A stretch of 64,000 nt of DNA, from the NCBI GenBank assembly GCA_027306785.1, contig DAHUZB010000025.1:3783-67782 (forward strand), in the 5' to 3' direction. A program made the position numbers and the translations under genes. This stretch comes from Vulcanimicrobiota bacterium. GTDB lineage: Bacteria; Vulcanimicrobiota; Vulcanimicrobiia; Vulcanimicrobiales; Vulcanimicrobiaceae. The notes below the pieces were generated by a model. The model searched no databases and was not told where the DNA came from. It worked only from the letters and a program-made list of their open reading frames with translations. This document shows positions 6,273 through 41,460 of the stretch, one piece after another. Positions within the stretch are counted from its first letter, which is position 1. Every line of letters starts with the position of its first letter.

Positions 6273-7799
<1,527 letters not shown>

Positions 7800-35360: not shown

Positions 35361-36253
35361 GTGGTCTCCTTCAGGGCGTCTTTGATTCCCGATACGTAGT
35401 AATACTGTTGCACCAGATCGCGCGCGAATTTCGAGTTCTTCGCGCGTGCGTCGAAATAGCCGAGCAGCGTCGGCATCCGCGTGAGCAGGCCGTGCAGACC
35501 GAGCGAGATCGGCGTCATGCCGAGATTCAACTGCACGGCGAAATCCGGGTGCTTGCGATAGAAGCGCACGGTCGAACGCCCGGCGAGCTTCATCTTCTCT
35601 TTTTGATCGTCGTGCGGCACGTCTTGGCAGTGATAGTTCACGGCCTTCGGTTCGTAGAGGATCGTGATGCCCGCACGCTCCAGGCGATAGCCGAGCTCGA
35701 GATCCTCGTGTCCGTAGCCGGTAAAGTTCTCGTCGAAGCGACCGACGCGCAGCAGATCCTCGCGGCGCACCGAAGCGTTGCCGGTGAGAAAGTAGAGCCA
35801 CGGCAGACGCTTGCGCGTGGGCTTGTGCAGCGATCCGCGCGCTTCGGGATGATCGCGCTTGTACGCGTAATTCTCGAGGTCTTTCACCTGCACTTCCAAT
35901 CCCACGACCGCGATCTTGGTGCGTTCGCGATGGTGCCGCAGATGCTGCGAGAGCAGATCGGGCGATGCGAGGATGTCGGCGTCGTTGAAGAGCACCACCT
36001 CGCCGCGCGCGGCGTCGATACCGGCGTTGCGCGCCATCGCGCGGCCGCTGTACGGGCCCGGCAAATGACGCACGTTCGGATGCTCGGCGTGCACCTTCGC
36101 GAGATACTCGGCGGTGCCGTCGGTCGAGTTGGAGTCGCAGACGAGCAACTCGAACTCGCTCGCGGGCAGATCCTGCGCGAGCAATGTCGGGATTACGTGT
36201 TGCAGCGTCTCCAACCGGTTATAGGTCGGAATGACGACCGAGAGTGCTGTCAT
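35357..36253 (-). CDS. Family 2 glycosyltransferase
   Basis: LSVVIPTYNR, ..RNAGI.. and FNDADI motifs. Confidence 0.85.
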   Translation of the reverse strand: MTALSVVIPTYNRLETLQHVIPTLLAQDLPASEFELLVCDSNSTDGTAEYLAKVHAEHPNVRHLPGPYSGRAMARNAGIDAARGEVVLFNDADILASPDLLSQHLRHHRERTKIAVVGLEVQVKDLENYAYKRDHPEARGSLHKPTRKRLPWLYFLTGNASVRREDLLRVGRFDENFTGYGHEDLELGYRLERAGITILYEPKAVNYHCQDVPHDDQKEKMKLAGRSTVRFYRKHPDFAVQLNLGMTPISLGLHGLLTRMPTLLGYFDARAKNSKFARDLVQQYYYVSGIKDALKETT

Positions 36254-37224
36254 CGTCCTAATTCATTCACGCCGCGTACGATCTCCGCGCGGAACCGCGC
36301 GAGCGCGGACTCATCTTCGCGTTCCGGCTTGCGAACGAGCACACTCGGCACGCCGTAGGGCGCCCATTCCTGCGAGTTCAGCCGGAAGTAGCGATGTTCG
36401 AAAGCGACCAGCGTGGGCCTGCGCATCGCGCTTGCGACATGGGTCGCACCGGTATCGACCGTGATCACGCAGCGCGCCCGCTCGAAGAGCGCGACCCAGG
36501 CGTGGAATTCGAGCTGCCGCATCACGGTGTGCCCCGCTTGCTCGAACGGCGCGGCGTACTCGTCGCACTCGGCCGCGCAGCTGAGCACGAGCGGGTACCC
36601 GAGGGCGCGTAGTTCGTCCGCGAGCGCGAGGGTGCTCGCAAGCGTACTGCCGGTCGTAAACCAGCGCTGCCCCAAATGCAGTACGAGCGGCTCGGGCGGA
36701 AGATGCGCGACCGCCGCGCGATCGGCCCCGGTCACGTCGAGCCGCAGGCGCGGAACGCGGGCCGTTGCGCCGCCGAGCGCAACGAGGTCGAGCAGCTGAT
36801 CCACCTCATGCGGCACCACCCGGTCGGGATGTCGTTCGCAGAGTTCGGGATCGGCCACGCTTACCATCATCCGGTTCACGTACAACCGCGCGGTGAGCCG
36901 CGCCACCCAACGCCGCTGATAGGTGTAGCCCACCCGCACCCGCGCGCGCGTGGCGCCGACCAGTTGCAGATCGGTTGCCCGCGGCGCGAGCGCGATCGCG
37001 AGATCGTAGTCGCGAAAGCGCGCGCCGAACACGCCGCCCTTTACGCCGCGCGGAAGATCGACGAGTTCGTCCACGTCGTCGTTGCGCTCCATCACCACGC
37101 GGTTGTACGGACTCGTCACCATCGTCACGTGCGCATCGGGAAACGACGCGCGTACCGTCGCAATCGCCGGCGTGGAGAGAATCAAATCGCCGATGCGATC
37201 GGTGCGCGAGAGCAGAATCTTCAT
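36250..37224 (-). CDS. Family 9 glycosyltransferase (heptosyltransferase-like)
   Basis: MKILLSRTDRIGDLILSTPA and the C-terminal ..TVDTGATHVASA.. are typical of GT9. Confidence 0.8.
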   Translation of the reverse strand: MKILLSRTDRIGDLILSTPAIATVRASFPDAHVTMVTSPYNRVVMERNDDVDELVDLPRGVKGGVFGARFRDYDLAIALAPRATDLQLVGATRARVRVGYTYQRRWVARLTARLYVNRMMVSVADPELCERHPDRVVPHEVDQLLDLVALGGATARVPRLRLDVTGADRAAVAHLPPEPLVLHLGQRWFTTGSTLASTLALADELRALGYPLVLSCAAECDEYAAPFEQAGHTVMRQLEFHAWVALFERARCVITVDTGATHVASAMRRPTLVAFEHRYFRLNSQEWAPYGVPSVLVRKPEREDESALARFRAEIVRGVNELGR

Positions 37225-37231
37225 ACGCGCA

Positions 37232-38134
37232 TTATCGTGCGGCGTGCAGCGCCGATTCGAGCTCTTCGAAGTAGGCCTCGTTCGCCAAACCGCGCGCGGC
37301 GCGCAATTCGCTATCGCTCAGCGCGCGATCGCCGGAGAGATCGCCGAGCGCGGCGCGATAGCGCTCGGCCCCGTGTCGCGCGCGCAGCACGTTGTGCAGC
37401 GCGCGCTGCACCGGATTGATGCCGGTCGCGAGGTAGGTGCGCCAGTGCGGATGGATCTTCGCCAACTGCACGGCGGTGCGCGCCTGCGCGCGCGCCTGCT
37501 TCACCATCTTTTCCACGTTGCCGCTGCGCGGGCGCGGCTTCCAGTGATAGACGAGGGCGTGTTTGTTGAAAACCGCCTTCACGCCGCCGAAACGCAGGCG
37601 CAGGCCGACATCGATATCTTCCCAGCCGTATTCGGAGAACGACTCGTTGAAGCCGCCGATCGCGCGGATCGTGGCGAGCGGCACCGAGACGTTGGTCGTC
37701 CAGAAATAGTTCGCGCTGTAGTCCTTGATGCTCCACACCGGCGGCGGAAGGTCGTCGAAGCTCTCGACGTTGATCGCGCCGCCGCGTACGATCGCCTTGG
37801 GGTGCGCATCGTGCGAGCGCAGGTGTTCTTCCACGAAGTTCGGCAGCGGCAGCACGTCGTCGTCGATGAAGATGATCCGCTCGCCCTGCGCGCGCGCGAT
37901 GCCCGCGTTACGACCCTTCGCAAGCCCGGAATTCTTCTGATCGATCACCTCGAAGCGGCACGTCGCGCGCAGCTGCGCGCGCGCGATCACTTCGGGCGTG
38001 TTGTCGGGCGACCCGTCGTTCACGAGCACGACTTCGTAGCTGTCGGCAGGCACGGTCTGCTCGAAACACGCATCGAGCACGCGCTCGAGGAGCGCGGCCC
38101 GATTGTAGGTGCAGAGCTGAATGGTGGCACGCAT
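37232..38134 (-). CDS. Family 2 glycosyltransferase
   Basis: QLCTYNR, VLVNDGSPD, GRNAGI and IDDD motifs. Confidence 0.85.
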   Translation of the reverse strand: MRATIQLCTYNRAALLERVLDACFEQTVPADSYEVVLVNDGSPDNTPEVIARAQLRATCRFEVIDQKNSGLAKGRNAGIARAQGERIIFIDDDVLPLPNFVEEHLRSHDAHPKAIVRGGAINVESFDDLPPPVWSIKDYSANYFWTTNVSVPLATIRAIGGFNESFSEYGWEDIDVGLRLRFGGVKAVFNKHALVYHWKPRPRSGNVEKMVKQARAQARTAVQLAKIHPHWRTYLATGINPVQRALHNVLRARHGAERYRAALGDLSGDRALSDSELRAARGLANEAYFEELESALHAAR

Positions 38135-38185: not shown

Positions 38186-39352
38186 CTACAGCGCTCGCGC
38201 CGCCGCGACGATGCGAGGAACGTCGAGGTGCGCGATGCAGGCGTAATCGCGACAGTTCTCCTTGGTATCGCCGGGGTGGCACGGGTAGCTCGGGCGCACG
38301 ATCGCGGTGCGTTCGCCCGCCGGTGCCCAGCGATCGGGAAAGTCGCTTCGGAACGGAAAGATGCCAACGGTCGGAGCGCCCACGGCGGCGGCGACGTGCA
38401 TCGATCCCGTGGTGATGCCGACGAAGAGCCGCGCCTGCGCGGCGAGCGCACCGAACGCGCCGATGCTCGTCGCCCCGGCAATGTCGTAGATCGCCCCCTT
38501 CGACAAGCTCAGGGTGACACACTCACCCCGCCCACCCCGCACGCCCGTGTCATCCGGCGCGCCCGCGTCATCCGGCGCGCCCATGTCATCCGGCGCGTCC
38601 ATGTCATCCGGCACGCCCGTGTCATCCGGCGCGCCCGTGTCATCCGGCGCGCCCGTGTCATCCTGAGCTTGTCGAAGGAGGGCGGCGTTGATGGGGGCGT
38701 CGGCGGGGGAGCCGCTGATCAGGACCGGCAGCGCGAAGGTGTCGCGGAGCGCGCGCGCGAGCGCGGCCCAGCCCTGCACGGGCCAGATACCGCGCTTGGG
38801 CGCCTCGGCGTTGGTGGGGTGCAGGATCACGTAACCGCCCTTCGCCAGGCCCAGCTCGGCGCGTAGCGCGTCGGCCTCGCGCTCATCCTGCGCGGTGGGG
38901 ACGAAGCGCGGGCGACGATCGGCGGTGTCGCAACCCAACGCACGCGCGTAGTCGAGTTGGATGTCGCCCCAATGCGACGCGGTATCGCCGCGCTCGCTGC
39001 GCACCGCCACCCGTTTGGTGAAGCGAAACGAGTACAGGCGGCGCGCCTGCCCCACACGCACCGGAATGCGCGCGAGCTGCGGCACCTTGGCCGTGCGCGC
39101 CGTCGCCCACGTCACCACGCAGGCATCGTAGCCGCGTTCGCGCAGCGTCGCGGCGAGCGCGCGTTCGTCGCCGCCGTCGTCAACGAGCACCGCATCGAGA
39201 TCGGGCACACGTTCGAGCGTGGCGCGATGGCCGGGCAGCGTAAGTGCGTCGACCGCGTCGTATTTCTCGCGCAACGCGCGCGCGACCACGCTCGAGACGA
39301 GCGAATCGCCGATGCCGCCGCCCGCGCAGTAGAGCAGCGCGCGACCGCTCAC
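38186..39352 (-). CDS. Family 9 glycosyltransferase carrying an in-frame repeat-derived insertion
   Basis: GT9 hallmarks (CAGGGIGDSLVSS.., ..GITTGSMHVAAAVGAPTVGIFP) are interrupted at about aa 223-286 by RQAQDD(TGAPDD)n..GECVTLSLSKG. Confidence 0.75.
   Translation of the reverse strand: MSGRALLYCAGGGIGDSLVSSVVARALREKYDAVDALTLPGHRATLERVPDLDAVLVDDGGDERALAATLRERGYDACVVTWATARTAKVPQLARIPVRVGQARRLYSFRFTKRVAVRSERGDTASHWGDIQLDYARALGCDTADRRPRFVPTAQDEREADALRAELGLAKGGYVILHPTNAEAPKRGIWPVQGWAALARALRDTFALPVLISGSPADAPINAALLRQAQDDTGAPDDTGAPDDTGVPDDMDAPDDMGAPDDAGAPDDTGVRGGRGECVTLSLSKGAIYDIAGATSIGAFGALAAQARLFVGITTGSMHVAAAVGAPTVGIFPFRSDFPDRWAPAGERTAIVRPSYPCHPGDTKENCRDYACIAHLDVPRIVAAARAL
38496..38682. repeat. 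Inverted pair of the dispersed repeat motif (copies C and D) enclosing a tandem array, inside the GT9 coding sequence
   Basis: CCCTTCGACAAGCTCAGGGTGACAC (38496-38520) and GTGTCATCCTGAGCTTGTCGAAGGAGG (38655-38682) are reverse complements at 24 of 25 positions. Confidence 0.7.
38549..38656. repeat. Tandem repeat, 6 copies of 18 bp (GTCATCCGGCGCGCCCGT consensus)
   Basis: The units start at 38549, 38567, 38585, 38603, 38621 and 38639, with 0-3 substitutions each. They encode DDTGAP-type hexapeptides in the GT9 frame. Confidence 0.9.
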
Positions 39353-40224
39353 GCCTCGTCGAGCGCGCGCACGAGCTCGCGCGTGTACATGCCGTCGAGA
39401 AACTGCGAGCGCGCGAACGCGCGCAACGCCGCGGGTGTATCATCGCTCGTCGCGAGTCCCGCGTAAAGCGCGAGCAGCGAATCGGGCAGCAGATACTTGC
39501 CGCGCAGCAGATTCAACCGATGGGCGCCCGTCGCCATGCGCGCGCGCGGCGAGGGCTGCTTGTCGAGAAAGCGCCGCGCCATGCGTGCTTTCTCCATCGC
39601 CTTGCGCGTCTCGACTTCGAGCGTGTTCTCGGTCGGCGGCTTGATGTGCCAGATATAGGCGTCCCACGCGAACTTCCAGCGCATGCCCGCTTCACGCAGG
39701 CGCACGCCGAGTTCGGTATCTTCCCAGCCGTACAAGCGAAACTCTTCGTCGAATCCGCCGACCGCGTCGAGTGCGTGCTTGGGCACCGACACGTTGCACG
39801 TGCAGAGAAACGCGCGCGAATAGTTGGCCGGAATCGGCTTCGGGCGGTCCTCGTAACCGCGCACGTTGAGGATCGGTCCGTTCACCACCAGATTGGTGGT
39901 GGAGTGCGCCGCTTCGTGCGCCGCGAGGAATCCCGGCGGCATCTGCACGTCGTCGTCGACGAAGAGCACGAGAAAGCCGCTCGCTTCGCGGATGCCCGCG
40001 TTGCGTGCCTTGCCGCGGTTGGGTTCGGGCTCGTAGACGTACGTCACGGGAAAGAGCCCGCGCGCGCTTGCGCGCTCGGCGACGCCCTTGGTGTCGTCGG
40101 TCGAGCCGTTGTCGACCACGATCGCTTCAAAGGACGGCGCGCCGATCTGATGCTCGAGCGAGGCGAGCGCCCGTTCGAGATAGTTCGCCCGGTCCTTGGT
40201 AGCGATGACGATCGAGATACGCAT
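39349..40224 (-). CDS. Family 2 glycosyltransferase
   Basis: ISIVIATKDR, VVDNGSTDDT, ARNAGI and FVDDDV motifs. Confidence 0.85.
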   Translation of the reverse strand: MRISIVIATKDRANYLERALASLEHQIGAPSFEAIVVDNGSTDDTKGVAERASARGLFPVTYVYEPEPNRGKARNAGIREASGFLVLFVDDDVQMPPGFLAAHEAAHSTTNLVVNGPILNVRGYEDRPKPIPANYSRAFLCTCNVSVPKHALDAVGGFDEEFRLYGWEDTELGVRLREAGMRWKFAWDAYIWHIKPPTENTLEVETRKAMEKARMARRFLDKQPSPRARMATGAHRLNLLRGKYLLPDSLLALYAGLATSDDTPAALRAFARSQFLDGMYTRELVRALDEA

Positions 40225-40242: not shown

Positions 40243-41460
40243 CTACGGCGTGGGAAGTTCCACGAGCGATTCGGCCATTCGATCGGCGGCACCCACGTGA
40301 TCGGCATAGAGGGCGCCGAGACGTGCGCGACTCTCGGCGAGCCAGGCGGCATCGTCGTAACGCCCGAGCGCGACGCGCGCTACGCGCCCCGGCGTAAGCG
40401 TGCCGTGCTCTTCGTGGATCAGCGGCGCGGCGGCATCCATGTTCGGCTGCGTGTGGTAGCGGAAGCGCTTGGCGATCGTCACCGCCACACCGCGCTTGAG
40501 CGGCACGCCGATGAGCGGAACGCGATCGAGATAGGTGAAGGGGCCGTTGAACGTGATCTTCTCGGGCGCGTTCATCGGGGTGATCGCGACCATCGGCACG
40601 CCGAGCGCGGCGAGTTCGATCGTCTTGGTGCCGGGCAACGTAACGACCAGCCGCGCGCGCGTGGCCGCGGCGAGCGCGTTGCCAAGCACGGGAAAGCGCA
40701 CGCTGCCGTCGGCGGTTGCGAGGTAGCGGCGATCGCCGTCGTCGATCAATCGCCCCTTCTGCGCCCACACGCGCGGATCGCCGCCGCGCTCGATCGCGCG
40801 CCGCACGTCGGATGCGGGCGTGAAGGGCGAGATGCCGAACGCGATCGGCAGACCCGGACGTTCGCGCGCGATCCGCAGTGCCATCGTAAAGAAGAACGGA
40901 ATCAGGTTCTCCACTTCGTACCCGCGCGATCCGGGCATGATCAGGATCCCGTCGTCGGGCGTGCCCGCCTCGGTCGGCTGTTGCGCTTCGAGCCGTGCGC
41001 CGTCGATCGCGAGGTTGCCGACCGTCACGATGCGCTCGGGCGGCGTTCCCCAGCCGCGCAACTGCTCCACGTTTTTCGCATCGACCGCAAACGCGCGCGC
41101 GATCCGCTCGCGATACGAGGGACGCGAGAACTTGTACGACGCGACCGCGCCGCCGAAGCGCTTGTGTAGACGCATCGCGTGCATCAAATCGCCGCCGAGG
41201 TAGAGCACCGTATCCACGCGATCCGGCAATCCCGGAACCTGCGCGCCGAGCGCGACGCGCAGATACGTCTTCGGGTCGTATACGTGCGCCTGCGGGAAGA
41301 GCCGACGGGCGAGATCGGCTTCGTAGCCGGTCGCGTAGTCGTCGGGCACGCAAAAGAGATGGATCTCGCACCCCGGATCGCGTGCGTAGAGGGCGCGGGC
41401 GAGCGGGCGAAACCAGCCGGCGACTTCGCCCGGACCGTTTGCGGTGATCGCGATGCGCAT
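40243..41460 (-). CDS. Lipid-A-disaccharide synthase-related (GT19-like) protein
   Basis: N-terminal ITANGPGEVAG, ILIMPGSRGYEVENLIP and LPGTKTIELAALGVPMV resemble LpxB and the LpxB-related family. Confidence 0.6.
   Translation of the reverse strand: MRIAITANGPGEVAGWFRPLARALYARDPGCEIHLFCVPDDYATGYEADLARRLFPQAHVYDPKTYLRVALGAQVPGLPDRVDTVLYLGGDLMHAMRLHKRFGGAVASYKFSRPSYRERIARAFAVDAKNVEQLRGWGTPPERIVTVGNLAIDGARLEAQQPTEAGTPDDGILIMPGSRGYEVENLIPFFFTMALRIARERPGLPIAFGISPFTPASDVRRAIERGGDPRVWAQKGRLIDDGDRRYLATADGSVRFPVLGNALAAATRARLVVTLPGTKTIELAALGVPMVAITPMNAPEKITFNGPFTYLDRVPLIGVPLKRGVAVTIAKRFRYHTQPNMDAAAPLIHEEHGTLTPGRVARVALGRYDDAAWLAESRARLGALYADHVGAADRMAESLVELPTP

Follow-up and report, generated by a model that had tools for sequence, protein, structure and literature searches.

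How can a gene for a glycosyltransferase carry, within a frame that stays open, two inverted copies of a dispersed repeat and the tandem array that lies between them? This question is raised by a gene of glycosyltransferase family 9 (GT9) in a 64,000-nucleotide stretch of DNA (hereafter the window; contig DAHUZB010000025.1) from an uncultured soil bacterium of the Eremiobacterota, whose genome measures 3.14 Mb and is 96% complete. A first reading of the letters alone (the original prediction) had offered three explanations, namely a tolerated insertion resembling a miniature inverted-repeat transposable element (MITE), a contingency locus, or a recently inactivated gene. We consider it likely that a dispersed hairpin repeat is translated here as an in-frame dimer, with an array between its arms, within a functional GT9 enzyme, and that the repeat family is cognate to a nuclease of the Ssn type, which acts on single-stranded DNA (ssDNA). 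Coordinates are collected in Table 1.

The two inverted arms, 27 nt each and 134 nt apart, are complementary at 25 of 27 positions (93%); the original prediction had them slightly shorter, with 24 of 25 positions matching. The array between them has a period of 18 bp, 6.8 copies, 92% matches and zero indels according to Tandem Repeats Finder (TRF), and is thus somewhat longer than the six units first counted at 38549-38656. On the + strand every unit starts with GTCATCC, as does the arm at 38655, and the tag-first arm is immediately preceded on its 5' side by the units, GTCATCC-GGCGCGCCCGT, each of which repeats the tag end, GGATGAC, of the left arm (left and right are used here in gene order). 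The array therefore looks as if it had grown by slippage at the arm, as proposed. Only one adjacent pair of units is identical, and the differences between units all change the amino acid, which argues against constraint on the array peptide. The mRNA hairpin closed by the two arms has a minimum free energy of -126.2 kcal/mol (z = -7.5). In an AlphaFold2 (AF2) model of the host protein (mean predicted local distance difference test score, pLDDT, 84.6; predicted template modelling score, pTM, 0.82), residues 234-283 are disordered (pLDDT <50), whereas both sides are confident. LRQAQDD, encoded by the left arm, is the C-terminal end of helix 216-233 (pLDDT ~94), and the next strand begins at residue 288. 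The insert is thus modelled as a disordered loop on the alpha-to-beta connection of the C-terminal Rossmann domain, the variable loop to which it had been assigned from the letters, and orthologue alignments agree. In Rossmann folds, alpha-to-beta loops lie on the face opposite the ligand cleft, and the insert in the GT9 enzyme probably faces away from the nucleotide-sugar cleft. The peptide itself would be functionless, and tolerated because these loops point away from that cleft.

The element is one member of a large family. The 22-mer CCTTCGACAAGCTCAGGRTGAC matched the window three times, against none in 100 shuffles, and the whole genome holds 161-164 copies of the motif (164 with a 20-nt core and up to 3 mismatches), against 0 for the reversed control, so that the dispersal claimed for the motif holds genome-wide. 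The 164 copies form 82 clusters, of which 47 are singletons; several inverted pairs also occur, as do tandem arrays in which the motif recurs with a period of 26-39 nt. When genes were called with a simple codon-bias caller (2760 genes), 89% of the genome was coding, yet only 40 copies fell inside genes and 124 outside, a strong depletion from coding DNA. The copies inside genes avoid one frame altogether. In sense orientation the frames reading LRQAQ(D/G)D, FDKLR and stop were used 23 : 2 : 0 times, and in antisense orientation those reading VTLSLSKG, HPELVEG and stop 13 : 2 : 0 times; inside genes 4 of 5 spacings between same-strand copies were divisible by 3, versus 7 of 53 outside. Other in-frame copies, for which a genome search had been recommended, were indeed found: 18 clusters, that of the GT9 gene included, lie in long open reading frames (ORFs) that show coding signal to either side of them. 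The affected gene products are MutS2, DnaX, Mfd, TrmFO, an OGDH E1-E2 fusion, a FadB-like enzyme, iPGM, IleRS, UvrA, ArgG, a MetX-like hydrolase, GcvPB, RF3, an E2 acyltransferase, MetH, a Kbl-like aminotransferase and GT9. All 16 host ORFs checked against Pfam had domains on both sides of the element, and most copies sat between domains, in linkers; such inserts are probably compatible with the host fold as a surface loop or linker. The common layout within genes is ALRQAQ(D/G)DT followed by a few units of 6-7 residues ending in (D/G)DT, closed in some cases by an inverted VTLSLSKG. We conclude that the repeat is a genome-wide family, mostly intergenic, that occurs in about 18 genes and there in stop-free frames only. 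A literature search for LRQAQDD, FDKLR.., SLSKG and the DNA core returned nothing relevant.

The host gene itself gave a match to PF01075 (Glyco_transf_9) of 77.1 bits (cut-off 22), in two stretches split by the insert. A Foldseek search with the AF2 model listed as top folds of the Protein Data Bank 1psw (WaaF, E 1.4e-17), 3tov (a Veillonella GT9 protein) and 6dfe/2h1h (WaaC), and the model has the GT-B fold of two Rossmann domains seen in WaaC and WaaF. The NCBIfam equivalogs for lipopolysaccharide heptosyltransferases I, II and III all scored far under their cut-offs (for example, TIGR02195, 74 bits versus 134.6). If the insert or its stable hairpin had recently inactivated the enzyme, the open frame would be a leftover, and an insert of 57 low-complexity residues, an mRNA hairpin of -126 kcal/mol and a GT9 paralogue 1 kb downstream might be taken as hints in that direction. 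However, the frame contains neither stop nor frameshift, and the flanks outside the insert give ratios of nonsynonymous to synonymous substitution (dN/dS) of 0.13-0.21 against three orthologues (dS 0.6-1.2), the congeners in these comparisons having derivatives of the element themselves. Either side of the insert is modelled with confidence, and 17 other genes of the genome, several of them essential, carry the same element. A recent pseudogene is therefore most unlikely; by frame, substitution rates and predicted fold, none of which bears signs of inactivation, the GT9 gene looks functional.

Comparison with orthologues defined the boundaries of the insert. All 40 relatives compared matched the GT9 protein in two pieces, at about residues 1-228 and 286-388, that are contiguous in their own DNA. 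The loop from INxAI to IAG had 12-15 residues in alignments of 20, 120 and 80 orthologues, versus 69 in the window, and the more distant orthologues lacked the inserted segment, as had been expected. From anchor to anchor the window measures 318 nt versus 147 nt at empty sites; the net gain is 171 nt, or 57 aa, rather than the roughly 63 residues first estimated, with the frame kept open as stated. The left arm is not purely added sequence: it overlays the end of the native helix. Among 80 other species representatives of the Baltobacteraceae (Eremiobacterota), 11 carried the left-arm DNA (21-22 nt, 0-2 mismatches) in the same codon register, making 12 species with the window, and five further ones a decayed version with 5-7 mismatches, the remainder being at background. 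In three loci (L156, L161 and L162) the loop with the motif is exactly as long as motif-free loops, so that the arm there overlays native codons and adds none. By contrast, the right arm was present only in the window genome, in its congener G001 and in the metagenomic protein P0001 (LLRQAQDDTSLSKGPYF). Array units vary from lineage to lineage, being 18 nt long and reading TGAPDD in the window, and 21 nt long and reading TSAAQDD in G001; P0010 has 10 units of TVRAQDD, while P0028 and P0040 have 4 units apiece. A homologous segment at the same place, which the original prediction had named as evidence against an insertion, thus exists for the left arm, though for neither the right arm nor the array. 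Of these parts, the left arm is old and has been preserved letter by letter; the right arm and array are young and genus- or species-specific. Because the independent metagenome-assembled genome (MAG) of G001 and the protein P0001 share the two-armed design at the same site, an assembly artefact, the other danger raised at the outset, is unlikely. Near-identical variants of the GT9 protein were not found in a set of 5.8 billion proteins, in which the best match was 72% identical. Elsewhere in the genome, both congeners, whose protein is 93-94% identical, lack the motif copy found in the Kbl-like gene, which shows that events are still recent. The GT9 orthologue of G001 (L009 / L142) also contains a second in-frame element at another site, after residue ~167 (..RVTPNDRVTPNDRVTPNDRVTLSLSKGSLSKGSLSKG..).

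These comparisons bear on the MITE-like explanation. A classical MITE or repetitive extragenic palindrome (REP), moved by a DDE transposase or by a Y1 transposase of the REP-associated (RAYT) type and inserted once, recently, into the loop, would have the terminal inverted arms and the many dispersed, mostly intergenic copies observed, with a patchy copy number that ranges from 0 to 444 among relatives. Against it, no direct repeat was found at the GT9 boundaries when filled and empty sites were compared, and hence no target-site duplication. PF01797 (Y1 transposase) had no match in the 96% complete genome, in which DDE transposases were not searched for. There is no unit of fixed length either, as singletons, arrays of period 26-39 and dimers with variable spacing all occur. 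In a GT9 gene tree with the loop masked (quick search, with support from the Shimodaira-Hasegawa-like approximate likelihood ratio test only), motif-bearing genes fell into at least four clusters inside one 28-row clade, interleaved with motif-free genes, and were absent from a 53-row clade. Several of these clusters share the register of the left arm, which in three species leaves the loop length unchanged. A single transposase-driven insertion is thus improbable, and the GT9 element does not, on these alignments, appear to be a one-step recent insertion. Of the three explanations first offered, a tolerated insertion nevertheless fits best.

The letters of the left arm call for a separate explanation. 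Its spelling, CTTCGACAAGCTCAGGATGAC, uses CTT, CGA and GCT, which make up 4.8%, 5.3% and 2.8% of the codons for their amino acids, and has a probability of 3e-6 under the codon usage of the genome. Together with dS values of 0.6-1.2 in the flanks, this means that selection on the protein cannot explain the conservation of the arm. Its DNA is either constrained, or refreshed from other copies, or repeatedly re-written, and local recombination between lineages is a possible further source of its distribution. Constraint would follow if the segment, or at least its left arm, worked as DNA or RNA, for instance as a recognition signal or processing site of the operon kept by selection. The rare-codon spelling (codons at 2.8-5.3%, chance 3e-6), the 0-2 mismatches in 12 species at such synonymous distances, and a 13-nt centre conserved over many phyla between covarying outer stems would all suit such a role. 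But the arm has decayed in sister lineages that retain the gene, most orthologues have no arm at all, and gene conversion from ~160 copies, or re-writing, would explain the conservation without any role at this place. Rfam has no family matching the motif, either in the window or at 16 cross-phylum loci. We regard a local function of the DNA or RNA as very improbable.

The motif core is CGCCC-TTCGACAAGCTCA-GGRTGACAC (GTGTCAYCCTGAGCTTGTCGAAGGR as a single string), and its other strand is an imperfect palindrome with a TGTCA tag, laid out as TGTC(A) tag, palindrome and tail. Records bearing the labels of at least a dozen phyla contain the 22-mer exactly. Around the 13-nt centre TTCGACAAGCTCA, each of the four adjoining base pairs was of Watson-Crick type in 52-72 of 77 copies, versus 23-51 expected from shuffled partners (only copies not used for choosing the cross-phylum loci were counted), and three or four pair types occurred at each of the four stem positions. 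A conserved centre with a covarying stem across phyla identifies the element as a hairpin. Full versions of the motif fold as ssDNA with -8.5 to -9.1 kcal/mol (z about -4.4); the usual unit of the window genome lacks half of the outer stem.

Array growth has a direction. Around 152 copies, orphan tag halves (GGRTGAC) numbered 77 on the tag side versus 19 on the other side, with ~2 expected by chance, whereas orphan other halves (TTCGACA) numbered 3 and 14, respectively; all arrays inside genes extend from the tag end. Arrays of this family grow on the GTCA-tag side only. Could the array serve as a contingency locus, changing its number of 18-bp units at a high rate and so tuning the enzyme or the operon without a frameshift? 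Array length and unit do vary widely among related lineages (window, G001, P0010, P0028 and P0040). However, 92% matches with a single identical adjacent pair indicate slow turnover, and an 18-bp unit cannot toggle the frame. Moreover, the protein is a cytoplasmic GT-B enzyme and no surface antigen, and arrays of the same type occur in IleRS, UvrA, TrmFO and others. A contingency locus is unlikely.

Which enzyme might the hairpins be paired with? In the window genome PF01541 (GIY-YIG) matched UvrC and one 98-aa ORF (C14:38221-38514, 62.6 bits) with no other domain. A motif copy contains the stop codon of this ORF (..PSTGSG*), and directly upstream of the ORF are four tandem copies in inverted orientation; it is the only motif-bracketed gene found in the genome. 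Its closest solved relatives are the UPF0213 proteins 1zg2 and 1ywl. Tyr6, Tyr16 and Glu64 stand at the positions of Y6, Y17 and E64, the residues mutated in SsnA (PMC11893778). At 12 homologous loci the motif was present on both sides of the gene in 7 (the window genome and six relatives) and on one side in 1; the four unflanked loci were a pseudogene, two genes in motif-free genomes and that of G009 (89 copies). The GIY-YIG genes of locus L030 and of a Clostridia MAG (L082) are likewise flanked on both sides by the same motif. A stop codon supplied by the stop-containing frame of the motif (..PSTGSG* or ..PSTSSG*) was seen at L261:1429-1725 (= C14:38221-38514), L264, L267, L269, L270 and L030.

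Gene and copy number were compared over 86 genomes, a comparison that ignores phylogeny. The median copy number was 42 with the gene and 0 without (Mann-Whitney p 1e-9), and the gene was present in 18 of 19 genomes with at least 40 copies versus 17 of 67 others. It was also present in 10 of 12 genomes that keep the GT9 arm versus 1 of 5 with a decayed arm; in the congener G002 the gene has been lost, 5 copies are left and the GT9 arm has decayed. The family appears to be the cognate hairpin of a 98-aa putative ssDNA nuclease of the Ssn type.

The described example of such a pairing is SsnA of Neisseria meningitidis, a GIY-YIG enzyme of 94 aa with a single domain. This enzyme binds the NTS hairpin in one orientation and only when the DNA is single-stranded, and it cuts a few nucleotides upstream; its gene is flanked by the repeat, and the Ssn family is widespread, each member having its own motif (Chenal et al., 2025, PMC11893778). 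Ssn enzymes with their SRM repeats and the present pair have in common a single GIY-YIG domain of ~94-98 aa in which Tyr, Tyr and Glu occupy the same positions (by the published description), and a gene bracketed in inverted orientation by a hairpin repeat, of which each gene-holding genome has tens to hundreds of copies. In both, a GTCA tag at the 5' end makes the repeat directional, and the repeat is spread across many phyla. Tag-side tandem arrays and in-frame peptides are found here and are not described in PMC11893778. A scan with the NTS pattern for an NTS-flanked ssnA found a small GIY-YIG gene at 1 of 120 loci, not adjoining NTS.

Several observations weigh against the pairing of hairpin and nuclease. 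A single unit of the window genome folds weakly as ssDNA (-2 to -2.6 kcal/mol) and is not more stable than shuffled sequences. The search pattern published for SRM, HGTCWYN(0-2)YYVSBRHN(0-5)WNVSBRGN(0-2)RNCYNB, matched none of the 164 copies, of which only the HGTCWY tag fits. Here 24% of copies lie in genes, versus 2% of NTS in N. meningitidis (PMC11893778). When gene and copy number were compared in phylogenetically independent pairs, ~4 went the same way, 0 the opposite way and ~7 were tied (median p 0.125). No Ssn-like gene was found at E <= 1e-15 in G045, a genome with 210 copies, and another genome, G078, has two Ssn-like genes and zero motif copies; the genes of the latter may be paired with a different cognate motif.

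If the hairpin and the Ssn-type enzyme do belong together, the following steps can be envisaged. By analogy with SsnA of Neisseria, the putative nuclease would attach to the hairpin in its single-stranded form and introduce a nick a few bases away on the tag side, where the units of the GT9 array lie. The growth of arrays on that side alone is an indirect hint of such cleavage. Repair of the nick, or slippage there, would then reiterate the tag with a short spacer, and inside genes selection would spare only stop-free products with a length that is a multiple of 3. The nuclease may be the maker of the arrays or the mover of the copies. A bolder version, which we hold tentatively and think doubtful as a whole, is that the TGTCA-tagged hairpin (centre TGAGCTTGTCGAA) represents an undescribed specificity class of Ssn in at least a dozen phyla, and that the Baltobacteraceae nuclease both writes and maintains its site in coding DNA. 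A tag-side nick followed by templated repair or gene conversion could then preserve an identical run of 21 letters, with its rare codons, at one register across genera, and the same process of nicking and repair might spin off the tag-side tandem arrays.

Among known repeats, the GT9 element belongs to the kind formed by the Rickettsia palindromic elements (RPE), reportedly described by Ogata et al. in 2000, and by tagged REPs. It is a dispersed multi-copy palindrome that is read through in frame in several unrelated, intact genes. REPs tagged with CGTC, or frequently with TGTC in its place, as an unpaired end include dRS3 of Neisseria and RPE-4 and RPE-6 of Rickettsia, lie inside genes such as uvrA, and have no assignable transposase (Di Nocera, De Gregorio and Rocco, 2013, PMC3733652). 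Both they (for RPE see the review PMC10969869) and the present family are short dispersed palindromes with an unpaired tag at one end and no dedicated transposase found. In both, a minority of copies is in frame in unrelated, often housekeeping genes, uvrA being one in either case, and inserts are often dimers or groups encoding a few tens of residues. Unlike the perfect, GC-rich stem of 8-9 bp with a loop of 4-5 nt, the present motif has a conserved 13-nt centre, TGAGCTTGTCGAA, with G.A mismatches; most units of the window genome lack half of the outer stem, the GT9 copy adds a tag-side tandem array, and the host phylum Eremiobacterota is outside the survey of PMC3733652. With REP/REPIN sequences and RAYT of Enterobacteria and Pseudomonas the family shares hairpins that occur singly or as inverted dimers, are mostly intergenic and flank a small cognate gene. 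Identity with that system was rejected because PF01797 found no Y1 transposase in the window genome; in addition, the tag is (T)GTCA rather than GTAG, and the flanked gene encodes a GIY-YIG nuclease. New here are the letter-perfect old left arm, the tag-side polarity of the arrays, and the physical pairing with a small GIY-YIG gene of the Ssn type.

In-frame selfish repeats have been a textbook oddity of Rickettsia, and the same behavior is now seen in a free-living, uncultured soil phylum, in about 18 affected genes, essential ones included, and with a named candidate for the partner enzyme. If the 98-aa GIY-YIG protein cuts the hairpin, the Ssn family gains a recognition class missed by the published pattern, and the CGTC/TGTC-tagged repeats, so far without a known mobilizing enzyme, gain a mechanistic lead; the polar growth of arrays on the tag side would then be a genomic footprint of the action of the enzyme. 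Should the nuclease also write its site in coding DNA, a tiny ssDNA nuclease would be a generator of new loops in housekeeping enzymes. For annotation, LRQAQDD, VTLSLSKG and FDKLRVT mark translated repeat copies rather than protein motifs.

Table 1. Features of the GT9 locus and its surroundings in the window (positions counted from the first letter of the window).
Feature	Position	Strand	Basis and remarks
GT9 glycosyltransferase gene, host of the element	38186..39352	-	388 aa; ORF list and Pfam PF01075
Left arm (gene order), motif copy read (L)LRQAQDD(T)	38655..38681	-	+ strand, tag first: GTGTCATCCTGAGCTTGTCGAAGGAGG
Tandem array, 6.8 x 18 bp, peptide TGAPDD	38542..38663	-	TRF; coding strand ACGGGCGCGCCGGATGAC
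Unique G-rich spacer between array and right arm, peptide ..VRGGRGEC..	38521..38541	-	No orthologue counterpart
Right arm (gene order), inverted motif copy read VTLSLSKG	38494..38520	-	Inverted-repeat and motif search
Third motif copy of the window, between genes	7765..7786	-	1 mismatch
Glycosyltransferase family 2 (GT2) gene, downstream, same-strand block	37232-38134	-	ORF list and Pfam
Second GT9 gene, downstream, same-strand block	36250-37224	-	ORF list and Pfam
GT2 gene, upstream; its own stop overlaps the GT9 start	39349-40224	-	ORF list and Pfam
405-aa ORF, upstream, in the GT2/GT9 block	40243-41460	-	No match in Pfam or NCBIfam

Some further observations concern the family outside the GT9 gene. 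On contig C30, between 27 and 104 kb, all 36 copies (17 clusters) point in the same direction whatever the strand of the neighboring gene, at a GC skew of -0.065. A tie between motif orientation and replication was considered and rejected, the link with GC skew being weak (p 0.06) and the closed genome G008 having no clean switch. At C15:51231-51544, two inverted motif arrays, of 3 and 4 copies with a period of 35, lie on either side of a terminator-like GC hairpin that is followed by a T run. In two Vulcanimicrobiota MAGs (L026:4480-4501 and L115) the motif abuts a stretch resembling a tRNA T-arm (GGGAATCGAACCCGCG); ARAGORN called no tRNA at either place, and the stretch may be a tRNA remnant or a disrupted tRNA gene. 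Six loci from Mucilaginibacter, Pedobacter and other Bacteroidota (L022, L039, L073, L101, L110 and L119) have in common a composite of ~75 nt, made of a full hairpin, GTGTCATGCTGAGCCTGTCGAAGCATGG, a spacer, GGGCCTCTGCGCGCG, and a second unit, CCTTCGACAAGCTCAGGRTGAC.

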